A stretch of 18,416 nucleotides of DNA from a virus. Both the position numbers and the translations under genes were made by a program. The stretch lies in UHGV virus genome UHGV-0317024; one strand, written 5' to 3'. How positions within the stretch are numbered: the stretch's first letter is position 1; each line of letters starts with the position of its first letter. Shown here in pieces: positions 383 to 12,668 of the stretch. The notes under the pieces were generated by a model that searched no databases, was not told where the DNA came from, and saw only the letters and a program-made list of their open reading frames with translations.

Positions 383-1416
383 TGAGCAAGAAAAAAGGGA
401 AAACACAGCAACCTGCGGCAAAAAAAATGACCGCCAGCGCCCCGAAAATGGAGGCATTCACCTTTGGTGAACCGGTACCGGTACTCGACCGCCGTGACAT
501 TCTGGATTACGTCGAGTGCATCAGTAACGGCAGATGGTATGAGCCACCGGTCAGCTTTACCGGTCTGGCAAAAAGCCTGCGTGCTGCCGTACATCACAGC
601 TCACCGATTTACGTCAAACGTAATATTCTGGCTTCAACGTTTATTCCGCACCCGTGGCTTTCCCAGCAGGATTTCAGCCGCTTTGTGCTGGATTTTCTGG
701 TGTTCGGTAATGCGTTTCTGGAAAAGCGTTACAGCACCACCGGTAAGGTCATCAGACTGGAAACCTCACCGGCAAAATATACCCGCCGTGGCGTGGAGGA
801 GGATGTTTACTGGTGGGTGCCGTCCTTCAACGAGCCGACAGCCTTCGCGCCCGGCTCCGTGTTTCACCTGCTGGAGCCGGATATTAATCAGGAGCTGTAC
901 GGCCTGCCGGAATATCTCAGCGCCCTTAATTCTGCCTGGCTGAATGAGTCGGCCACGCTGTTCCGCCGCAAGTATTACGAAAACGGCGCTCATGCCGGAT
1001 ATATCATGTACGTCACCGATGCCGTGCAGGATCGCAACGATATCGAAATGCTTCGCGAAAACATGGTCAAGTCGAAAGGCCGCAACAACTTTAAAAATCT
1101 GTTTCTCTATGCCCCGCAGGGGAAAGCCGACGGCATTAAAATTATCCCGCTCAGTGAAGTGGCAACGAAGGACGATTTTTTTAATATCAAAAAAGCCAGC
1201 GCCGCTGACCTGCTGGACGCGCACCGCATCCCCTTTCAGCTGATGGGTGGCAAGCCGGAAAACGTCGGGTCGCTGGGCGATATTGAGAAAGTGGCAAAGG
1301 TCTTTGTCCGCAATGAGCTTATCCCGCTACAGGACAGGATCCGCGAGATAAACGACTGGCTCGGTCAGGAGGTCATCCGCTTTAAAAACTACTCACTGGA
1401 CACTGACAACGGCTGA
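382..1416 (+). CDS. Q: Capsid portal protein (gpQ-like), 344 aa
   Basis: 344-aa ORF, same length as P2 gpQ; coupled to the upstream gene by ATG overlapping its stop; ends about 170 bp before the cos site, as in P2. Confidence 0.85.
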   Translation: MSKKKGKTQQPAAKKMTASAPKMEAFTFGEPVPVLDRRDILDYVECISNGRWYEPPVSFTGLAKSLRAAVHHSSPIYVKRNILASTFIPHPWLSQQDFSRFVLDFLVFGNAFLEKRYSTTGKVIRLETSPAKYTRRGVEEDVYWWVPSFNEPTAFAPGSVFHLLEPDINQELYGLPEYLSALNSAWLNESATLFRRKYYENGAHAGYIMYVTDAVQDRNDIEMLRENMVKSKGRNNFKNLFLYAPQGKADGIKIIPLSEVATKDDFFNIKKASAADLLDAHRIPFQLMGGKPENVGSLGDIEKVAKVFVRNELIPLQDRIREINDWLGQEVIRFKNYSLDTDNG

Positions 1417-1421
1417 ACATC

Positions 1422-1444
1422 GCCGCCTGCGGGCGGCTTTTTTA
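1422..1444 (+). terminator. Rho-independent terminator of the P-Q packaging operon
   Basis: Perfect 6-bp GC stem GCCGCC(1422-1427)/GGCGGC(1432-1437) with TGCG loop, followed by T-run 1438-1444, 6 nt after the Q stop codon. Confidence 0.7.
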
Positions 1445-1585
1445 CATCCCGTCATCACGCCCTCACACGCTCACCACCGCACAAAACAGCCCGCAGGCAA
1501 ACCAACGCCTCAACGGACAGACTAAGCGCCGTCACGACGCGCTGAGACGCTGAAAAAATAAAATCAGCACCACCGCCAGCGCGCA

Positions 1586-1604
1586 GTGCTTTCCCCGCCT
1601 CGCC
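1586..1604. other. cos site, 19-nt cohesive end of P2 type
   Basis: Plus strand GTGCTTTCCCCGCCTCGCC is the exact reverse complement of the P2 cohesive end GGCGAGGCGGGGAAAGCAC as I recall it; it sits between Q and the replication side, as in P2. Confidence 0.8.
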
Positions 1605-1718
1605 CGCCCGCTTCATGGGGCGGTTTTAATGCAGTTGCATAGATACTATGGATCCGCACCAGTCCTGACCGCACGCAGCCTGAACGGACATCCCCGACGC
1701 ATGCAAAAACATTCACTT

Positions 1719-1730
1719 GTTGCATGCAAC
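1719..1730. promoter_or_regulatory. Perfect 12-bp palindrome GTTGCATGCAAC upstream of the first cargo gene; candidate operator
   Basis: Perfect dyad read from sequence; a further GCATGCA copy at 1700-1706; lies about 110 bp upstream of the 1843 start codon in an AT-rich leader. Confidence 0.25.
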
Positions 1731-1842
1731 GGCTTATTTAATGACAAATCAACTTAAATTTACAAAATCCACAGGTATGGATACTTTGCGAACATGATAG
1801 GCTTACGAGAATTATCGAGCCTATTTTTGACCGGAGCAATGT

Positions 1843-2784
1843 ATGCAAGGTAAAGTTGACGAACAGCAATCCAATGATATTGAAGCTGAGTTTGGATACT
1901 ATCCAGTAGAAGTTAACGTTGAAACTGATGATTTTTCTTTACTTACTTTACCCGGTCTGGCGGAAAAAACAAATCTTATAAACAATCACAGAAATGTTAT
2001 TAACGGTTGGATATACCCAGGAAACCAAGAAGTATATAACCTCAATGGAGGCATATCCACAATGCCTTTTAGCCAACGAGTATTTGGCTTACCCAAAACA
2101 CACTCACTAAAATTAAAAAATACATCTTCACTAGAAACTCTCAATTTTGCTGTGTGGTGTCTGTCTTTTTTCAAAGGGATAAGATTAACAACTACTGATG
2201 CCGGTTTTTTAGACGCAACCCCAATAAAACCCAGCAAATTAACTGACTTTATTCTGGTCAAGTGCTCTGAAAAAGAGGTTATAGAATTAGCACTCAAATA
2301 CATGTCTAGCGAGACAAAAACCAAACACGCACCAATAAATATAGCAGCAATAGTGCATGCACTATTTTTATCCCAAAACCCACAATACCTTAGCTTCGAA
2401 AAATTCCAGTATCTTTACATGGCACTGGATAGTTGCTTTGCTTTAACATGGGCAGAAAAGAACAAGTGTACAGAAAAGACTCTAAATCACTCCAGGCGCT
2501 TGAAGTGGATCTGCAAAACTTATGGAATACCACGACCATCATGGGTTACAGGCAAAAAAAACATTACAAACATCCGCAATGAAAACTTTCATGAAGCTAT
2601 GTTTCATGGTCAACCACTTGGCTTTACCACTATTAACAATTATCAATATGGAGATGACATATTACAACAAATGCAGGCTTTAATTTGCCGATTACTCGTT
2701 GCGATTCTTGGTGTTAACGCCCCCGATTACATCACATCGAACGTGAACTCTCGTGAATATCATTCACTAACATTAAAAATATAA
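1843..2784 (+). CDS. Hypothetical protein, 313 aa, AT-rich cargo gene; function unknown (weak HEPN-like Rx4H motif at residues 245-250)
   Basis: Long ORF with SD GGAG (1833-1836) 6 nt before ATG. Codon usage is strongly AT-biased compared with flanking phage genes. No Walker or other clear catalytic motif recognised. R245-N-E-N-F-H250 fits Rx4H but that alone is not diagnostic. Confidence 0.6.
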   Translation: MQGKVDEQQSNDIEAEFGYYPVEVNVETDDFSLLTLPGLAEKTNLINNHRNVINGWIYPGNQEVYNLNGGISTMPFSQRVFGLPKTHSLKLKNTSSLETLNFAVWCLSFFKGIRLTTTDAGFLDATPIKPSKLTDFILVKCSEKEVIELALKYMSSETKTKHAPINIAAIVHALFLSQNPQYLSFEKFQYLYMALDSCFALTWAEKNKCTEKTLNHSRRLKWICKTYGIPRPSWVTGKKNITNIRNENFHEAMFHGQPLGFTTINNYQYGDDILQQMQALICRLLVAILGVNAPDYITSNVNSREYHSLTLKI

Positions 2785-2799
2785 AACGACTAAAAATAC

Positions 2800-2825
2800 T
2801 CTCCAGTAACAATAAGTACTGGAGA
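2800..2825. terminator. Hairpin between convergent cargo genes; possible bidirectional terminator
   Basis: 9-bp perfect stem TCTCCAGTA(2800-2808)/TACTGGAGA(2817-2825) with 8-nt loop, between the stop of the 313-aa gene (2784) and the stop of the minus-strand 199-aa gene (2867). The flanking T-tracts are weak. Confidence 0.4.
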
Positions 2826-2866
2826 TGTATTATCACTAAAACCAATAAAAAATCACAACTAATGCT

Positions 2867-3466
2867 TTACTTAGATAGTTTGTCTTTAATTATATTCAGA
2901 ACACCAATTATTAATTCACTGATTGGCGTGGCCAACTCAATAGTATTAGATGTCGACTTTGTTCTAAAGTCTTTATCTGTCGGGTGTTGAAATGCTGATT
3001 TAAGAAGAGTCAAAAGCAAAGTTAAACCCACACCAAGGATGAATGCAACAATAGCTATTAGAGAACTGGCCGATAACCAATCGGTGGATAAACCAGAAAT
3101 AGATTTTCTAACTTTATTAGTGTCTGAAGATGGTGTTATCCTCTCATCAGCCATCTTCGGATCCGAAGATAAAGCAGAACATTTTTCTGCTGAAACACAA
3201 GTTTGTGTATCTACTTTTTGTGTTATCGCTGCGGCAATACTGCTTTTCGCTTCCAGCAAGCCATTTCCAACAGCCAAAGCAAAGTTAAGCCCCTGCCATA
3301 GAAATGTACAAGCAAAACAAAGCACAACGGCAGAGAGCACTAATCGCATACTTCTACGCTCTATACCATCCCGTCTATCTCGCCTTATAAGGATATCAGG
3401 ATCTAAATCGCCCTTAGGAGTGGTTCCTTGCTCTGGGGACTGTCCAGATAAATCAATATCAGCCAT
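2867..3466 (-). CDS. Predicted membrane protein with two transmembrane helices, 199 aa; function unknown
   Basis: Two hydrophobic segments (about residues 40-67 and 130-155) separated by a Ser/Thr-rich hydrophilic loop; charged N-terminal 39 residues. AT-rich. Lies downstream of and co-oriented with the ImmA-like gene. No strong SD at the first ATG. Confidence 0.55.
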   Translation of the reverse strand: MADIDLSGQSPEQGTTPKGDLDPDILIRRDRRDGIERRSMRLVLSAVVLCFACTFLWQGLNFALAVGNGLLEAKSSIAAAITQKVDTQTCVSAEKCSALSSDPKMADERITPSSDTNKVRKSISGLSTDWLSASSLIAIVAFILGVGLTLLLTLLKSAFQHPTDKDFRTKSTSNTIELATPISELIIGVLNIIKDKLSK

Positions 3467-3505
3467 AAAAAAATCACCCTTACATGTACAAACGTAAAGG
3501 TGATT
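3467..3505 (-). terminator. Hairpin plus U-tract immediately upstream of the 2-TM gene start; candidate attenuator or terminator
   Basis: On the minus strand an ~11-bp stem (one G-U pair) with a 12-nt loop is followed by seven U (plus-strand A-run 3467-3473), directly abutting the ATG at 3466. Confidence 0.45.
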
Positions 3506-3532
3506 TTAAACAGGTTAAAAGTTAAAGGCTAA

Positions 3533-4018
3533 TTAATAAGCCATTCCTAAGCTCTTTAAGCGCCAATGCATAGCGGCTTCTGATACATTAAAGATGCTTG
3601 CTAATCTCAAAGTGCTATCAATACCTTCTCTGGATACCAATTGACGTATAGCAGACTCAGGCATTAACAACTCAGCAGCAAACTTGTTTGCTTCAACCTC
3701 ACGGTAATCACGAGCACCTGTTGAATAATTCCCGACATTATCCCGATGGTACTCTCCGTCCTGGGTATGCCCCAGCACATGATGACCTAACTCGTGTGCA
3801 ACAGTAAAACGTTGACGATTAGAATGTTCACTAGAATCAAAATAAATCCTATGGACACCCTTTTTGATGACAGCCAGACCGCTTAACCCATCGTTGTTAT
3901 AAGCCGATTCCTCAAGTGCTTCAACACGAGCACCCCACGCTTTAGCAAGCTTAAACGGATCGACAGGTAGTCGGCGATCCCAATAGCGGTCAAGCAGTTT
4001 TTTAGCTGCATAGCTCAT
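3533..4018 (-). CDS. ImmA/IrrE-family zinc metallopeptidase-like protein (HEXXH), 161 aa
   Basis: HELGH motif at residues 75-79 (nt 3782-3796) in the context FTVAHELGHHVLGH, with downstream EVEANKFAAELLMPE typical of the ImmA/IrrE (DUF955) fold. Strong SD AGGAGG 5 nt upstream of the ATG. AT-rich cargo. Confidence 0.8.
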   Translation of the reverse strand: MSYAAKKLLDRYWDRRLPVDPFKLAKAWGARVEALEESAYNNDGLSGLAVIKKGVHRIYFDSSEHSNRQRFTVAHELGHHVLGHTQDGEYHRDNVGNYSTGARDYREVEANKFAAELLMPESAIRQLVSREGIDSTLRLASIFNVSEAAMHWRLKSLGMAY

Positions 4019-4660
4019 GGTTGCCTCCTACGTTAAAAAAGTTAAGTATGCACAGCCATATCACAGTTGTTATTTTATGTCAAGGCTGTTTTTCAGCCAT
4101 TACTATAACACTAATCCACGTTTTCCCATAACATTTTCGACATCATATATGCATTCAGTTCTGCATATAGAGCTTATCTTTGCTGATAACACGAGATGAA
4201 TACGCGCAACCAGCCCACGATTTATAAAAAACCTTATAAATCAGAATATTGAGTTAAAAAAACACTAACTACTTGCGCAGCGAGTTGTTAAACCTCAGCG
4301 ATACTAAAAGAAAATTTCAGAGTCACCGAAGTTTCCACAGAAAACGCAACTTAATGATTTTATTGGAATTTATGTCGCTATTTTTAATTACTTGTTTAAA
4401 TCCGCCATATTGAAACTGTGCATTTCTAGCCACTCACAACTTTAAAAAATTTACATTGCTTTCAAGACCTTATCATCCGTAGTCTCTGCTTTTTACTTTG
4501 AGCTATATCAAAAAAAGCTCAAACATCCTTGATGCAAAACCAGTATTACACAACATAAAATGCAACCAGAAACAACGACATACTATATGTTGTGTTGTTC
4601 AGGTCCTCTGTTCGGTGATATGCCAGATCACTTTGCGTTTAAACAGAGCATTATTTCAGG

Positions 4661-4674
4661 GCAAGACTTCGCTC
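4661..4674 (+). repeat. Direct repeat copy 1, GCAAGACTTCGCTC
   Basis: Exact 14-nt match to 4925-4938; each copy is followed within 3-25 nt by AGTCACTC. Confidence 0.6.
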
Positions 4675-4739
4675 AATAGTCACTCCGCCTTAGAAGCGCA
4701 TATATCGGCGGAAATTGCCCTCTGCTTACAGGAGGCGAT

Positions 4740-4853
4740 ATGAAGAAGTGCTATTACTGCATTCTCGTTCTGGCCCTCTTTGGCTATCCATATGGTAGTC
4801 CGAGTGGTTTGTCAGTAAACGTCAGTAATATCCATGTAAGTATTTTTCTTTAG
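4740..4853 (+). CDS. Candidate small hydrophobic peptide, 37 aa (MKKCYYCILVLALFGYPYGSPSGLSVNVSNIHVSIFL)
   Basis: Not in the supplied ORF track. Canonical SD AGGAGG (4730-4735) 4 nt before ATG 4740; stop TAG 4851-4853; followed 18 nt later by a terminator; hydrophobic Cys/Tyr-rich N-terminus. Confidence 0.3.
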   Translation: MKKCYYCILVLALFGYPYGSPSGLSVNVSNIHVSIFL

Positions 4854-4861
4854 TATGCTTC

Positions 4862-4895
4862 AAACAAAAAAACCACCTGCCAGGGTGGTTTTTTT
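4862..4895. terminator. Bidirectional rho-independent terminator
   Basis: Stem CCACCT(4873-4878)/GGGTGG(4883-4888, one G-U pair), flanked by A-run 4862-4872 and T-run 4889-4895. Can terminate the small plus-strand ORF and minus-strand transcription leaving gene A. Confidence 0.65.
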
Positions 4896-4924
4896 GCGCC
4901 CGTCATCAATCCGATGAAAGACTA

Positions 4925-4938
4925 GCAAGACTTCGCTC
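4925..4938 (+). repeat. Direct repeat copy 2, GCAAGACTTCGCTC
   Basis: Exact 14-nt match to 4661-4674. Confidence 0.6.
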
Positions 4939-5155
4939 GAGATGAATTATGCTTCGACATAAAGTCACTCGCAATGGTTTTATTAACCGAAATAGATGCT
5001 CTTTTATGACTCGAATCAAATAGCTGCCTTCAATTACATGCTAACGATTCAATACAATTTAGCCTTCTGATTCAACACGCTATTGCTCCTCATCTACCTT
5101 AGAGGTGTTTCGCATAATCCATTCAAAGACATATAAAATCACGCTGTATTTTTAC

Positions 5156-7432
5156 TCAAATGGGTAACAAAAATCCCGGCCAATCATCAGCGACCTGATA
5201 AGTGAAAGGTTTCCCGTCATAATTTACGGTCGCGCCACGCGCCAGCGCCTCAAGCTCCCATCGTTGCGGCCTGATACCGTTCTGAGCGAGATCAACGCGG
5301 ATACGGGTAATTTGCAATCGTTCCGACCGGGTCAGTCTGGCCGATGGTGCAATTTCATGCGGTTTTAACGGGCTTCCGTTTCTTTGCTGACGGTTTGGCG
5401 TTCTCCGGTCGTGTTTTAATGCGCCCCTGAGCGCCCTCACGACCTCCGGGTCATTCCATTCGATAACATCGTCATCAACCAGATTAAGCACTGCTGCGGC
5501 GTGCTCAGAAGGTGTGGGAGCCGGTAACGAAGTATCACCACCGGTGAGCTTTCCACAGTTATTGACAGGACTCCGAGGCGCGGCGATGCCGCTTTTTAAA
5601 GTCAAAGGCTGAACGACCGGAACTTTCGGCACAATGCGCCAGTCCGTCGTTCTGGTGATATGAATATGACGCGCGCCGAGATGCGGCGCGTAAATGCCGA
5701 CCACTCTCTCGACCTCTTCCTCGTACTCGTTAACGTCATCCGACAGACTACGGGCGACCCTGACAGTCTGACAATCGCGCGGGACATTTGCCCCACCCTG
5801 CGCGCTGATATACAGCGCAAAATCACCACTGTCTGCGGCGGCGCGTGCAGCCTCGACGCGCTCGTCAAACTCATCAGCAATGCTGACGCCGCGAGGCAAT
5901 TTGCGTAGTTCACGGTAAGCCCCCATTGTCGGCAGGCCAACCGTTTTAAATTGCGGAATGCGCCACGTTGACGCCCATGCGGTAACAGCCGCTGCAGTGT
6001 CTTTCAGCGGCCTGCCGGTGTCGTTATCGAGCTGACCATCCAGTGCATAGCCGTCGATGTTTTTTGAAATGTATTTCGCGATATATCCCGCAGCACCGCC
6101 CCGGTTAAGGTGTTTTGCCTGAAAACGGTTTCGCGCGGCTCCTCTTTCGTCGCCATCCTCTTTGAGCGCATAGCGACGCATGATTTCGATAATCTGGTTA
6201 CGCTGGCGTGGATGACAAAAAAGCATCATATGCCAGTGCGGCGTTCCGTCGTGGTGTGGCTCGACGACTCGCAAACCGTAGACCTGTAAATCATTATCCT
6301 TGAATGCCGTGCGCATCAGGCTCCAGATACGGCAGAGATAACGCTGCGCATCCTTTGGATTAAATGCCTCATCGTTCCAGCCGTGATTAAGCTGAACGGT
6401 TTTACTTTCGCCTTTTCCGACCTGACGTGTCGGGTGATACTTTGACGGCGCGGTCAGCGTGATAAACATCCCCACATCACCCTCTGCGGCGGCGTAACGC
6501 TCAATACCGGCAATGGTGTTCATCAGCTCCATCCGGCGAATTTCAGGATTAGAAATACTGCCCATCACCTTACTGATAAGGTCGATGCGCTCGCCGGTTT
6601 CCCTGTTTTCAAGGTCACACGATTTAAGAAATTCCAGATTTGCCTGGCGGCGCGCACGCACATCACGAATGGCGTGTTTACTGGCATAAGGAGAACGGTC
6701 TTTATTGACCTCCCCGACAGCTATCAGTAACGCCTCATGCCAGCGCATACGCTGGCCTTTAAGCTGATGAGTCCACCACTCATCGTTAAACAGGCGGGCA
6801 ATGGCAGAATATGCCTGCCTCGTGGTCATCTGTCCTTTACGGTATTTTTTCCAGTAGAGCGGGGAAATATTGAAAGCACGTGCAGCGCCAGCAACATGAC
6901 CATACAGGTGAGCCTGCGCCTCATCCGTAAACAGCGATTCTTTTTCACCATGCGCATCCACCCATGCATCGCAGAGTTCCTCATACATCATGAAAAGCTG
7001 CGATGAGATACGGGCGGCAAACTTTTTCAGCTCCTTGTCATTCATTCCCGGCAGGCGCGCATAGTGGTCACGCTCTGCCAGAAACAGCAACGACGCGTCG
7101 GTGTTCATTTCATGGCGCTGATTCACACGCTCAATGCGCGGCCATAAACGACGCTGAAAAGTAGATGTGAGGAAATAAAACCCGTGCACCGGGCTTTTAT
7201 TGCGCCGGATGTAGTCATAGCGTGAAGTAAACAGCGAGCGCAAAAAGTAAGGCAGGCGGTTAATCGTGGATAAAACACCTTGCACCTGACGCATCTCGTC
7301 ACGTGTAAGAGGTCTTTCGCGCCCGACAGCCTCGCGTGGCGCGTTCCATGCATAAGCACCGGTAAACGCCTTACCGGTGCCTGCGGTAAATGCTGACGGA
7401 GGGACAAAACGCCCGGAGGCTTTAACGGCCAT
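5156..7432 (-). CDS. A: Rolling-circle replication initiation endonuclease (gpA-like)
   Basis: The 772-aa ORF begins at a TTG at 7474; I place the start at the ATG at 7432 (MAVKASGRFVPP...), which matches the P2 gpA N-terminus as I recall it and gives 758 aa against 761 in P2. Position downstream of the early operon is as in P2. Confidence 0.85.
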   Translation of the reverse strand: MAVKASGRFVPPSAFTAGTGKAFTGAYAWNAPREAVGRERPLTRDEMRQVQGVLSTINRLPYFLRSLFTSRYDYIRRNKSPVHGFYFLTSTFQRRLWPRIERVNQRHEMNTDASLLFLAERDHYARLPGMNDKELKKFAARISSQLFMMYEELCDAWVDAHGEKESLFTDEAQAHLYGHVAGAARAFNISPLYWKKYRKGQMTTRQAYSAIARLFNDEWWTHQLKGQRMRWHEALLIAVGEVNKDRSPYASKHAIRDVRARRQANLEFLKSCDLENRETGERIDLISKVMGSISNPEIRRMELMNTIAGIERYAAAEGDVGMFITLTAPSKYHPTRQVGKGESKTVQLNHGWNDEAFNPKDAQRYLCRIWSLMRTAFKDNDLQVYGLRVVEPHHDGTPHWHMMLFCHPRQRNQIIEIMRRYALKEDGDERGAARNRFQAKHLNRGGAAGYIAKYISKNIDGYALDGQLDNDTGRPLKDTAAAVTAWASTWRIPQFKTVGLPTMGAYRELRKLPRGVSIADEFDERVEAARAAADSGDFALYISAQGGANVPRDCQTVRVARSLSDDVNEYEEEVERVVGIYAPHLGARHIHITRTTDWRIVPKVPVVQPLTLKSGIAAPRSPVNNCGKLTGGDTSLPAPTPSEHAAAVLNLVDDDVIEWNDPEVVRALRGALKHDRRTPNRQQRNGSPLKPHEIAPSARLTRSERLQITRIRVDLAQNGIRPQRWELEALARGATVNYDGKPFTYQVADDWPGFLLPI

Positions 7433-7697
7433 ATGAGCCAAAAGCCTCTGAACAACGCTTGCTGAGTTGCTCAACCTGCGCGTTTAAATCAGCAAAAGAT
7501 TTTGCGCTTCCGGTCAGAATATCGTGATGCATCAGGCCGGAAACGAGCTGGCCTAATTTCGGGTAATAACCAACCACCGCCAGCCATTCCTGACCGGCGT
7601 TTTTACCGCTTTCCGCTCTCTTTTTCTCGTGGAGAATAAACTGAAAGCTGTCACTGGTAACGACATAACGTTCGCCAATTTCAATACGAATACTCAT
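7422..7697 (-). CDS. Early-operon hypothetical protein, 91 aa (P2 orf83 position)
   Basis: ORF with stop overlapping the A start and start overlapping the upstream gene stop (ATGA coupling); synteny with the P2 early operon. Confidence 0.6.
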   Translation of the reverse strand: MSIRIEIGERYVVTSDSFQFILHEKKRAESGKNAGQEWLAVVGYYPKLGQLVSGLMHHDILTGSAKSFADLNAQVEQLSKRCSEAFGSYGR

Positions 7698-11504: not shown

Positions 11505-12668
11505 TTACTCATCATCTTCTGTTTCGTACTCCACATCAGAAAGCCTGACCTCAAGCTCTAAGGACGTCGTGAAGCCGCGATTATTCAGAAAATGTGTCAC
11601 CTTAGTGATTGTCCAGTCCTGCTCGTCTATGACGCGCTTAAAACCTGACACTTTGACCGGCGTTTCCGTGTAAATATCTGCACGACCGGTAGCCAGGCTG
11701 ATGGAAAACTCCGCAACGCCCCGTTGCAGTTTATCCCACTTCGCCTGAGCGGCGCGCATGGCCTGCGCTTTCGTGGCATATACCGTGGTCAGGGCAAAAA
11801 CATTGTCAGCCTCACCGGCCATGTATTCACCTTCGCGCGCTTCCGGTACTTTTGGCGCTTTCTTCTGCGTGACCGGTTTCGCTTTCGGGTGCTCCAGTGC
11901 GCGCAGGTGTTTCTCTTTCTTTTTGCGTTTCAGTTTTACCTTCTGCTTTTGTGGCTTCGGGTCTTTGGTGTGTAACCACTTTGCCGTTACGCCGGTGTAG
12001 GCTCCACGGTCAGCAATCGCAAAATGATGACGGTCGCCGTCGCTGCGGGTGATGGTAATCTGCGGGATTTTTTTACCGCTGGCCGTCACCCCCTGCCCGG
12101 CTTTGAGAAACAACAGTTTTCCCATTTTTACCGACACCTCACCGCCGTTGCGTTCTGCTAGACGGGTCAGGAATTTCGCATCAGACTCCTGCGACTGATC
12201 GATGTGCGGGATTTTAATTCCGGCCAGTGACGGAGCGACACTGGCTTCCAGCCTGTTACGGGAGGCTATCGCCTCAACAATCGCACCGAGCGTGGTGTCA
12301 TGCCAGGAGCCTTCACGGCGGGAATTGAGCGTGCCACGAAAATCTGCACTCCGGGCCCGGATGGTGACCACATCCGGCGCGCCCCGGTGTTCTACCTCAT
12401 CAACGGTGAATTTCCCTTTGCATACCAGGGCAAAACCTTTCCAGCCGATATACACCGTCAGGACAGCGCCACGAACCGGCAGCCCGACCTGCCCGTCGGC
12501 ATCGTTCAGTTCAATATCAAGCTGGTCAGCCTCAAAGCCCCGGTTATCCGTCAGGGTCATGCTCATCAGACGGCCGCTGATATTGCCGGTAATATCCCTG
12601 CTGTCGAGCATCAGCATGTAATCCGGCGTCAGCGTACTGCCTGCATCAAATGTCAGTGCATCCAGCAT
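11505..12668 (-). CDS. D: Tail protein gpD-like, 387 aa
   Basis: Same length as P2 gpD and same position (last gene of the tail operon before ogr). Confidence 0.85.
   Translation of the reverse strand: MLDALTFDAGSTLTPDYMLMLDSRDITGNISGRLMSMTLTDNRGFEADQLDIELNDADGQVGLPVRGAVLTVYIGWKGFALVCKGKFTVDEVEHRGAPDVVTIRARSADFRGTLNSRREGSWHDTTLGAIVEAIASRNRLEASVAPSLAGIKIPHIDQSQESDAKFLTRLAERNGGEVSVKMGKLLFLKAGQGVTASGKKIPQITITRSDGDRHHFAIADRGAYTGVTAKWLHTKDPKPQKQKVKLKRKKKEKHLRALEHPKAKPVTQKKAPKVPEAREGEYMAGEADNVFALTTVYATKAQAMRAAQAKWDKLQRGVAEFSISLATGRADIYTETPVKVSGFKRVIDEQDWTITKVTHFLNNRGFTTSLELEVRLSDVEYETEDDE

Follow-up and report, generated by a model that had tools for sequence, protein, structure and literature searches.

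The low-GC (guanine plus cytosine) stretch between the cohesive-end site (cos) and replication gene A in virus genome UHGV-0317024 is real cargo, and it holds two independent, uncharacterised accessory modules. We analysed the whole 18,416-nt stretch, referred to here as the window, which is a P2-like (Peduovirus) prophage in reverse orientation, with the end of the terminase gene first and portal gene Q following. One module is a single gene on the plus strand, open reading frame (ORF) 313, and the other is a pair of minus-strand genes encoding an M78 peptidase and a membrane protein with two transmembrane segments (2-TM). The fullest explanation, to which we give slightly better than an even chance, is that these are unrelated modules placed side by side, a solo HEPN ribonuclease (RNase) and a peptidase-controlled membrane effector. 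Both are likely to be phage-exclusion or toxin-type genes, an anti-phage phenotype that we infer from sequence. The relevant features are as follows; L numbers here and below are our labels for the loci used in comparisons.

1843-2784, plus strand: ORF313 (313 amino acids), a stand-alone predicted HEPN RNase, module 1
2575-2592, plus strand: codons of the predicted Rx4H HEPN catalytic motif, R245-N-E-N-F-H250, from an alignment of 33 homologues; the motif lies on helix 241-254
2800-2825, both strands: bidirectional terminator-like hairpin with a 9-bp stem, between the convergent ORF313 and 2-TM genes
2867-3466, minus strand: gene for the 2-TM membrane protein (199 amino acids; phrog_8096), the predicted effector of module 2
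3470-3507, minus strand: hairpin and U-run in the peptidase/2-TM intergenic region, found as an inverted repeat, 4 nt from the 2-TM ATG
3533-4018, minus strand: M78 peptidase gene (161 amino acids; ImmA/IrrE-type, minimal), the first gene of module 2
3782-3796, minus strand: HELGH zinc-binding motif, from residue 75 on, read from the sequence
4019-4390, minus strand: leader and promoter region of the peptidase gene, kept with the pair in L001 and L102
382-1416, plus strand: portal gene Q (ORF call)
1586-1604, minus strand: P2 cos cohesive-end sequence, a 19/19 match to GGCGAGGCGGGGAAAGCAC, at the left edge of the hotspot
5156-7474, minus strand: replication gene A (ORF call)

The query GGCGAGGCGGGGAAAGCAC is what we take to be the P2 cohesive-end sequence, and a 19/19 match to it has a chance expectation of 0.01 matches. 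Together with gene A at 5156-7474, the cos site at 1586-1604 confirms the location given in a sequence-only reading of this DNA, which had placed a three-gene island of clearly lower GC between cos and A. The three ORFs lie exactly where that reading put them (1843-2784 on the plus strand, 2867-3466 and 3533-4018 on the minus strand), and the difference in composition is also as described, with GC values of 0.368 for ORF313, 0.398 for the 2-TM gene and 0.444 for the peptidase gene against 0.538-0.555 for the backbone. Taken from cos to A, the island has a GC of 0.383 (1701-5155), compared with 0.545 (P/Q), 0.538 (gene A) and 0.555 (late genes). Its end was set too early at 4018, since low GC continues to ~5150; the 3' part (4019-5155) has a GC of 0.376 and contains no ORF longer than 81 amino acids.

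The division into two modules follows from where the genes are found. ORF313 occurs without the pair in P2-EC67 (GenBank AM157369), where it already bears the name ORF313 and sits beside ORF226 and ORF73, and in Yersinia P2-like phages. An allele with ~78% identity is present in ~50 complete E. coli genomes, again with other neighbours and without the pair, and further homologues without the pair are found in Pseudomonas, Aeromonas, Acinetobacter and Stenotrophomonas, where the neighbours differ each time. The pair, in turn, is found without ORF313 in the Peduovirus record OU784750, where the downstream gene, annotated from an internal start, belongs to the same PHROG family. The two genes of the pair are the sole annotated ones in the slot of E. 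coli O121 strain 201805972, and the pair also occurs without ORF313 on a plasmid, in a genomic island, in other prophages and in other P2-like prophages.

The sequence-only reading had treated the three genes as a single unit, which would correspond to one abortive-infection system in which ORF313 is the enzyme, the peptidase the regulator and the 2-TM protein the effector. Such a system would account for the adjacency of the genes in a hotspot, for the presence of the whole trio in all 46-47 near-identical E. coli copies (at least 99% identity), and for the entry of the arrangement as one locus in an earlier catalogue (Table S5 of Rousset et al. 2022, PMC9122126). However, these copies are 99.5-100% identical over 3.6 kb and probably stem from one event. 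Co-occurrence of the trio does hold in E. coli, but solely as near-identical copies of one island, and because only island copies of at least 99% identity have both parts, we attribute the co-occurrence in complete E. coli genomes to shared descent. The parts are separate in many genomes and genera, each found without the other in E. coli as well as elsewhere, and ORF313 and the pair are convergent, separated by the terminator-like hairpin at 2800-2825. A single three-gene system is therefore largely refuted by the gene distributions, and we regard it as highly improbable.

The setting is a well-known one, as the Q-A interval of P2 was described as a defence hotspot by Rousset et al. (PMC9122126). 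That the slot carries variable cargo, as had been proposed, is seen in related prophages, which hold other gene sets or nothing between Q/cos and A. For example, the same slot contains an AAA ATPase pair in the prophage of E. coli W, a DinI-like gene and other genes in a 186-like prophage (L100), and nothing annotated in the prophage of strain 504838. The 3.6-kb island of the window recurs at 99.5-100% identity in Salmonella phage MET_P1_103_31 and, among 5,426 complete E. coli genomes, in 46. RefSeq labels the trio as "hypothetical protein" twice and "ImmA/IrrE family metallo-endopeptidase" once.

The arrangement has been catalogued before and is functionally unassigned. Table S5 of Rousset et al. 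(PMC9122126) lists "Peptidase_M78 + hypothetical + hypothetical" with the accessions WP_000119270, WP_001161722 and WP_001389947, which are the same proteins, and also lists "hypothetical + Peptidase_M78" without ORF313. "Peptidase_M78" was not found in Table S2 of that study, which covers the evaluated systems, and the catalogue makes no HEPN assignment, gives no function and does not divide the arrangement into modules. The description of the island as undescribed thus has to be given up for the arrangement and can be kept for its function. Rousset et al. also validated a system of "three hypothetical proteins"; identity with this system is unlikely, as it is described as having no predicted domains and the present locus is listed with Peptidase_M78. 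Neither ORF313 nor the 2-TM protein matched any PADLOC model, although PADLOC 2.0 may not include models for the "three hypothetical proteins" system. None of the three proteins matches a whole PADLOC system, in line with the expectation from sequence, and in Pfam and NCBIfam, too, the M78 domain was the one part of the three proteins to be recognised. The accompanying statement that the proteins have no resemblance to known defence proteins was too strong, since ORF313 has an Rx4H motif and a putative HEPN-like fold, and the M78 part of the peptidase is recognised by the capP and RmrA models of PADLOC.

ORF313 appears to be a single-gene HEPN protein of a family for which no profile model exists, with predicted RNase activity and a predicted trigger. 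Its homologues form 603 clusters found throughout the Gammaproteobacteria at 45-50% identity, and it matches phrog_5937, a PHROG without an assigned function. There was no Pfam family at E values up to 1 and no PADLOC or NCBIfam match, and when 33 homologues were compared with Pfam one by one, no HEPN family appeared and there were just weak, chance-level matches. Alignment of these 33 homologues, down to 44% identity, nonetheless shows that R245, N246, H250 and E251 are invariant (RNxxxHE). This is the Rx4-6H motif of the HEPN superfamily, including the polar residue after the arginine. In an AlphaFold2 model with a pLDDT (predicted local distance difference test) of 82.9, an alpha/beta domain of unrecognised fold, rich in strands, makes up the N-terminal part (residues ~1-160), and a helical, possibly HEPN-like domain forms the C-terminal part (residues ~163-300).

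The top structural matches of the model are HEPN domains; the scores are moderate, and unrelated helical bundles score alike in the same list. For this reason the HEPN assignment is based on motif and fold together. It is weakened by residues 250-263, directly past the motif, which have a pLDDT below 50. A Foldseek search of ORF313 against the PDB returned nothing, and no solved structure matched its N-terminal domain. The ORF313 profile, when searched against PDB sequences, matched a stretch of ribonucleotide-reductase R2 with an E value of ~0.01, which we judged to be spurious. The UniRef name of one homologue (P0063) is "Apea-like HEPN domain-containing protein", which we treat as a lead only.

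The neighbourhoods of the homologues outside P2-like phages are mixed. In P. aeruginosa the homologue lies in an island resembling an integrative and conjugative element, with an OLD-family ATPase nearby; in Aeromonas it adjoins an AlkZ-like gene; and in Stenotrophomonas it sits among unknown genes. In Acinetobacter seifertii (L106, 3907-5957) a DUF4238 gene lies 84 nt upstream of the homologue. DUF4238 was validated as a defence of one gene by Rousset et al. (PMC9122126), which suggests that the two genes form a small defence islet. Given that Aeromonas homologues lie among housekeeping genes, that no HEPN hidden Markov model matches and that the structural scores are just moderate, the protein could also be something other than a defence RNase. 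The Rx4H domain might bind RNA or a ligand, or process phage or host RNA for the prophage, or the HEPN call itself might be wrong. We consider this rather unlikely.

If ORF313 is a HEPN RNase, its closest functional analogues would be ApeA, HepS and DARNA. These are likewise single genes with no fixed partner, carried by prophages or islands, and beside the Rx4H HEPN domain they have a non-catalytic one that may be a sensor. ApeA (Gao 2020; bioRxiv 10.64898/2026.01.26.701840) has ~580 amino acids in N-terminal, Mid and split-HEPN domains, all helical; ORF313 has 313, has a strand-rich N-terminal domain and gave no match to the HEPN_Apea profile in Pfam or PADLOC, and was rejected as an ApeA. 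In DARNA/PD-T7-3 (bioRxiv 10.64898/2026.02.22.705581), a protein of 456 amino acids, an N-terminal HEPN domain with R117x4H122 precedes a C-terminal helical domain that binds single-stranded DNA (ssDNA). The domain order of ORF313 is the reverse, and there was no PADLOC match, so that this identity was rejected as well. Finally, HepS (PMC13043305) is a stand-alone HEPN protein of fewer than 250 amino acids with its motif at residues 100-105, which does not agree with the 313 residues, additional N-terminal domain and motif at 245-250 of ORF313.

By analogy with ApeA, HepS, DARNA/PD-T7-3 and PrrC, the C-terminal HEPN domain of ORF313 (R245x4H250) would be a latent RNase, and the N-terminal alpha/beta domain would likely be its sensor or regulatory part. 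Infection by another phage would activate the protein, which would then halt translation by cleaving tRNA or other RNA. Cleavage of tRNA or other RNA followed by growth arrest is the output of solo HEPN abortive-infection RNases, and the same would be expected here.

The second module, the peptidase/2-TM operon, appears to be an unusual variant of the ImmA/IrrE/CapP group without a helix-turn-helix (HTH) substrate, and is the part of the island that most merits experiments. The sequence-only reading was right that the first gene encodes a minus-strand HEXXH metallopeptidase of the ImmA/IrrE type: the protein matches Pfam Peptidase_M78 (PF06114) with an E value of 3.8e-21 and 75.6 bits (cut-off 22), with HELGH at residue 75. 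It shares with the peptidases of ImmA/ImmR, IrrE/DdrO and CapP/CapH the M78 (COG2856) domain, the HEXXH motif and the downstream E-x-x-A-N-x-F-A-x-x-L-L-M-P block; in the alignment HELGH and this block, EANKFAAELLMP, are conserved. ImmA, with ~160 amino acids, is of the same size, and both it and the window peptidase adjoin their presumed target on mobile elements or near immune genes. Unlike the ImmA/ImmR-type pairs, where the substrate is an adjacent or fused XRE-type HTH repressor, the window peptidase has the 2-TM protein as its neighbour. The 161-residue protein contains neither a GAF nor an HTH domain, and it lacks cysteine.

These absences separate the peptidase from the two defence families that it matches in PADLOC. 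The match to capP (1e-30) covers profile positions 8-153 of 242 only, and the protein itself ends at residue 161, lacks cysteine and has no CapH neighbour, so that it cannot be classed as CapP. CapP and IrrE are activated through an ssDNA groove and a cysteine switch, and in CapP central HTH-like and C-terminal GAF domains join the peptidase in forming the groove, many members also having the cysteine-switch loop (PMC13228613). Since the window peptidase has no GAF domain, ssDNA groove or cysteine, this activation mechanism is inapplicable as described. The RmrA models were matched with E values down to 6e-17, in the M78 part only (e.g. positions 146-267 of 363). We take these models to represent the antitoxin of RosmerTA (RmrT/RmrA), in which the upstream part of RmrA is an HTH domain and RmrT is the toxin partner. 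RosmerTA resembles the present pair in that an M78-domain protein is combined with a toxin in a defence of the toxin-antitoxin type. The RmrA models have 357-400 positions and match only C-terminally, from ~140 on, and the window peptidase is stand-alone, is the first gene of its operon and has a specific 2-TM family as its partner; it was therefore rejected as an RmrA.

A loop of the peptidase (window 3743-3787, residues 78-92), between HEXXH and the third zinc ligand, contains the invariant residues H84-T85 and H91-R92-D93. This is where the autoinhibitory cysteine-switch loop of CapP is located; the window peptidase is without cysteine, and a histidine-based equivalent of the switch is conceivable.

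The second gene encodes a member of phrog_8096 (E 1e-124), a PHROG without a function, with 53 homologue clusters that are mostly from the Enterobacterales. The two transmembrane segments that had been claimed for it are there as hydrophobic segments at residues ~38-66 and ~126-160. They carry Arg/Lys-rich flanks, from which both tails are inferred to be cytoplasmic (N-in/C-in). The protein also has an N-terminal DLSG motif (D5/L6/S7/G8), an invariant AFILGVGLTL in the second transmembrane segment and a C-terminal amphipathic helix.

What makes the pair a unit is its conservation across unrelated settings. On the Serratia chromosome (between phn and nrdD genes), on an Enterobacter plasmid and in a Vibrio island flanked by serine recombinases, the 2-TM gene is always preceded by an M78 gene of 161-164 amino acids with a gap of ~70 nt, and the two proteins diverge in parallel, with the peptidase at 63% and then 46% identity and the 2-TM protein at 48% and then 23%. 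Among the ~45 closest peptidase loci in GTDB species representatives, 27 have a 2-TM ORF of 119-260 amino acids directly downstream, in Desulfovibrio, Nitrosomonas, Pseudomonas, Moraxella, Sulfurimonas and other genera, and the 2-TM family model detects several of these partners. More distant peptidase relatives, at 36-41% identity, instead have an HTH-sized ORF that overlaps them upstream, the classical layout. In all, a stand-alone M78 gene of ~155-175 amino acids with a same-strand gene directly after it for a 2-TM protein with polar N- and C-terminal tails was found in the window, in L001, L102, L005-L012 and L109-L116, and in the 27 GTDB loci. An N-terminal D-[LFY]-[SG] motif, often DLSxG, is present in 33 of 54 partners; shuffled sequences gave 3.5 +/- 1.8. 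The partners have in common, in addition, the Arg-rich flanks, the AFILGVGLTL helix and the C-terminal amphipathic helix.

Two of the prophage settings are classical positions for accessory genes. In P. aeruginosa prophages (L109-L112, 4001-4934) a 170-residue M78 protein and a 135-residue 2-TM protein with an N-terminal KDLSQG are encoded immediately after an S24-type CI gene, and in Klebsiella the pair is at the end of a P2/HP1-like prophage. In lambda, rexAB occupies the same place beside cI.

The Serratia locus (L005, 7463-9246) holds a further pair of genes ~1.8 kb 3' of the peptidase/2-TM pair. The first encodes an unknown protein of 223 amino acids, and the second, which overlaps it, encodes a fusion of HTH_3 and Peptidase_M78 of 371 amino acids, the RosmerTA architecture. 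It follows that two different M78-based modules lie in one small phn-nrdD island.

The expression of the operon would be strongly biased towards the peptidase. The hairpin in the intergenic region contains, in its 3' arm, the sole Shine-Dalgarno-like sequence (GGUGA) of the 2-TM gene, and across five loci (window, Serratia, plasmid, Vibrio and E. coli O121) 4 of its 13 predicted pairs have pair-keeping changes on both sides. The hairpin could thus be an attenuator or terminator that masks the ribosome-binding site and keeps the 2-TM protein well below the level of the peptidase. Upstream, a promoter was recognised by eye (TTGACA at 4083-4078, a spacing of 17 nt and TATGGC with a TG extension, with AGGAGG at 4029-4024), and the scan tool did not list it. 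The region 4019-4390 travels with the peptidase in P2-like phages, and the Serratia, plasmid and Vibrio loci share just the last 16 nt, the ribosome-binding site. A conserved upstream non-coding RNA was ruled out for the same reason, as the DNA upstream of the peptidase is not common to the different contexts beyond these 16 nt. No LexA-box-like site was found upstream, and SOS control of the peptidase was discarded.

From these features a mechanism can be proposed. An ImmA-type M78 zinc peptidase would be made in excess in the cytoplasm, while the hairpin and U-run would limit the downstream 2-TM protein. The latter would oligomerise via its invariant, GVGLT-bearing second helix and would damage or depolarise the inner membrane. 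With the usual HTH substrate absent and the 2-TM protein the sole conserved partner, the cytoplasmic tails of this protein are the most probable target of the peptidase. The candidate cleavage site is the D-L-S-x-G motif conserved near its N-terminus. Cleavage might either keep the 2-TM protein inactive, in the logic of an antitoxin, or release it upon a trigger, as in a protease-gated effector. The role of such a peptidase-controlled membrane effector would be phage exclusion or element addiction. Two known systems offer analogies: lambda RexA/RexB, a prophage accessory operon of a cytoplasmic sensor or enzyme and a small membrane protein, which the present operon resembles in its layout, and the protease-activated bacterial gasdermins, in which a protease is combined with a pore, the logic proposed here with both the membrane damage and the cleavage predicted.

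In its boldest form, the proposal is that the pair belongs to an unrecognised and widespread class of protease-gated membrane effectors and includes the first peptidase of the ImmA/IrrE family with a membrane toxin as its substrate, and that ORF313 founds a new family of solo-HEPN defence proteins whose sensor fold is also new. During phage infection, cleavage of the cytoplasmic D-L-S-x-G tail by the peptidase would turn a pore-forming or depolarising activity of the 2-TM protein on or off. We put this forward tentatively, as something possible and less than probable. Some observations weigh against our main, two-module explanation. The statistic for the DLSG motif is inflated, as related sequences were counted. 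The neighbours of 20 distant pair loci are mainly housekeeping genes, with only 3 integrases and a few restriction-modification genes, and outside the Enterobacterales and prophages the defence-island signal is weak.

The housekeeping surroundings of the distant relatives would fit better if the pair were an addiction (post-segregational killing) or stress module, in which the peptidase steadily degrades a membrane toxin and loss of the element frees it. An abundant first gene and an attenuated second gene are also the pattern of antitoxin-toxin operons, copies of the pair occur on a plasmid and islands, and one source calls a homologue (P0203) a "toxin". Moreover, COG2856 peptidases have long been predicted to be toxin-antitoxin components (PMC2701414). 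An addiction module, however, requires an unstable antitoxin, for which an enzyme is an odd choice, and the repeated placement in accessory slots of prophages fits exclusion at least equally. Addiction is also compatible with defence, as many toxin-antitoxin modules are abortive-infection systems too. On balance, we hold a pure addiction or stress role to be unlikely.

A further possibility is that the two proteins have nothing to do with each other. The peptidase would then be an anti-repressor of the ImmA kind and cleave an HTH repressor from another locus, such as the C repressor of the prophage or that of another element, making the prophage inducible or disturbing other phages, and the 2-TM protein would be an unrelated protein of the exclusion or lysis type. 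All characterised members of the group (ImmA, IrrE and CapP) cleave an XRE/HTH repressor, and phage 186 has the SOS-controlled anti-repressor tum at the same genome end. The slot of the L100 prophage holds a DinI-like gene. The gene contexts speak against this possibility. There is no HTH ORF in 4019-5155 and no HTH gene adjacent to the peptidase in the Serratia, plasmid, Vibrio, Klebsiella and O121 loci, and the 2-TM protein is the sole conserved partner, also at loci outside phages. The P. aeruginosa pair adjoins an S24-type CI gene, and the CI of these prophages is self-cleaving. Together with the lack of a LexA-box-like site upstream, this makes an anti-repressor improbable, and a peptidase-controlled membrane effector remains the reading that we prefer for the pair.

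Not all of the low-GC DNA is cargo. The ~760 nt next to gene A (~4391-5150) belong to a phage backbone lineage: at ~86-94% identity they recur in ~100 E. coli prophages whose cargo differs, and in a slot that is otherwise empty. The following features were found in this part.

4440-4960: near-invariant core of ~500 nt with diverging flanks, shared with a locus that has other cargo (L013) and with one whose hotspot is empty (L014)
4740-4853, plus strand: hydrophobic ORF of 37 amino acids with AGGAGG upstream; differences between phages are mostly synonymous
4865-4896, both strands: bidirectional terminator, predicted on either strand
~4939-4862, minus strand: predicted RNA of ~77 nt with a promoter-like site, a fold z of -3.8 and a terminator

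The core is found in ~150 of the 5,426 complete E. coli genomes irrespective of cargo, and RefSeq carries no annotation for it. It has no Rfam, Pfam or NCBIfam family; Rfam searches of 1400-5300 gave sub-threshold matches only, on the terminator hairpin. The 5' 14 nt of the ~77-nt RNA are exactly complementary to 4661-4674, in the 5' untranslated region of the small ORF, and both 14-mers are invariant in five phages. The element is a candidate for a trans-pairing type I toxin/antitoxin pair, with both transcription and toxicity predicted. Known pairs of this kind are zorO/orzO and tisB/istR.

Elsewhere in the window, an AT skew of -0.37 to -0.40 was noted at 11600-12200, at the start of the late-gene block and around a minus-strand ORF (11505-12668). 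This is probably merely a coding-strand effect.

The cos-A slot of P2 is a proven anti-phage reservoir, and the arrangement described here occupies it in ~1% of complete E. coli genomes with no function assigned. Three genes cloned together would confound two systems, so that the correct split alters the experiment. Many P2-like prophages may carry an unannotated type I toxin-antitoxin locus in the element beside gene A. If ORF313 is a HEPN protein, it would add a new family to defence annotation, with at least 600 clusters that no profile library recognises, together with a new sensor domain. And if the peptidase does act on its membrane partner, the role of ImmA/IrrE/CapP-type peptidases would widen from the cleavage of repressors to the control of membrane effectors.

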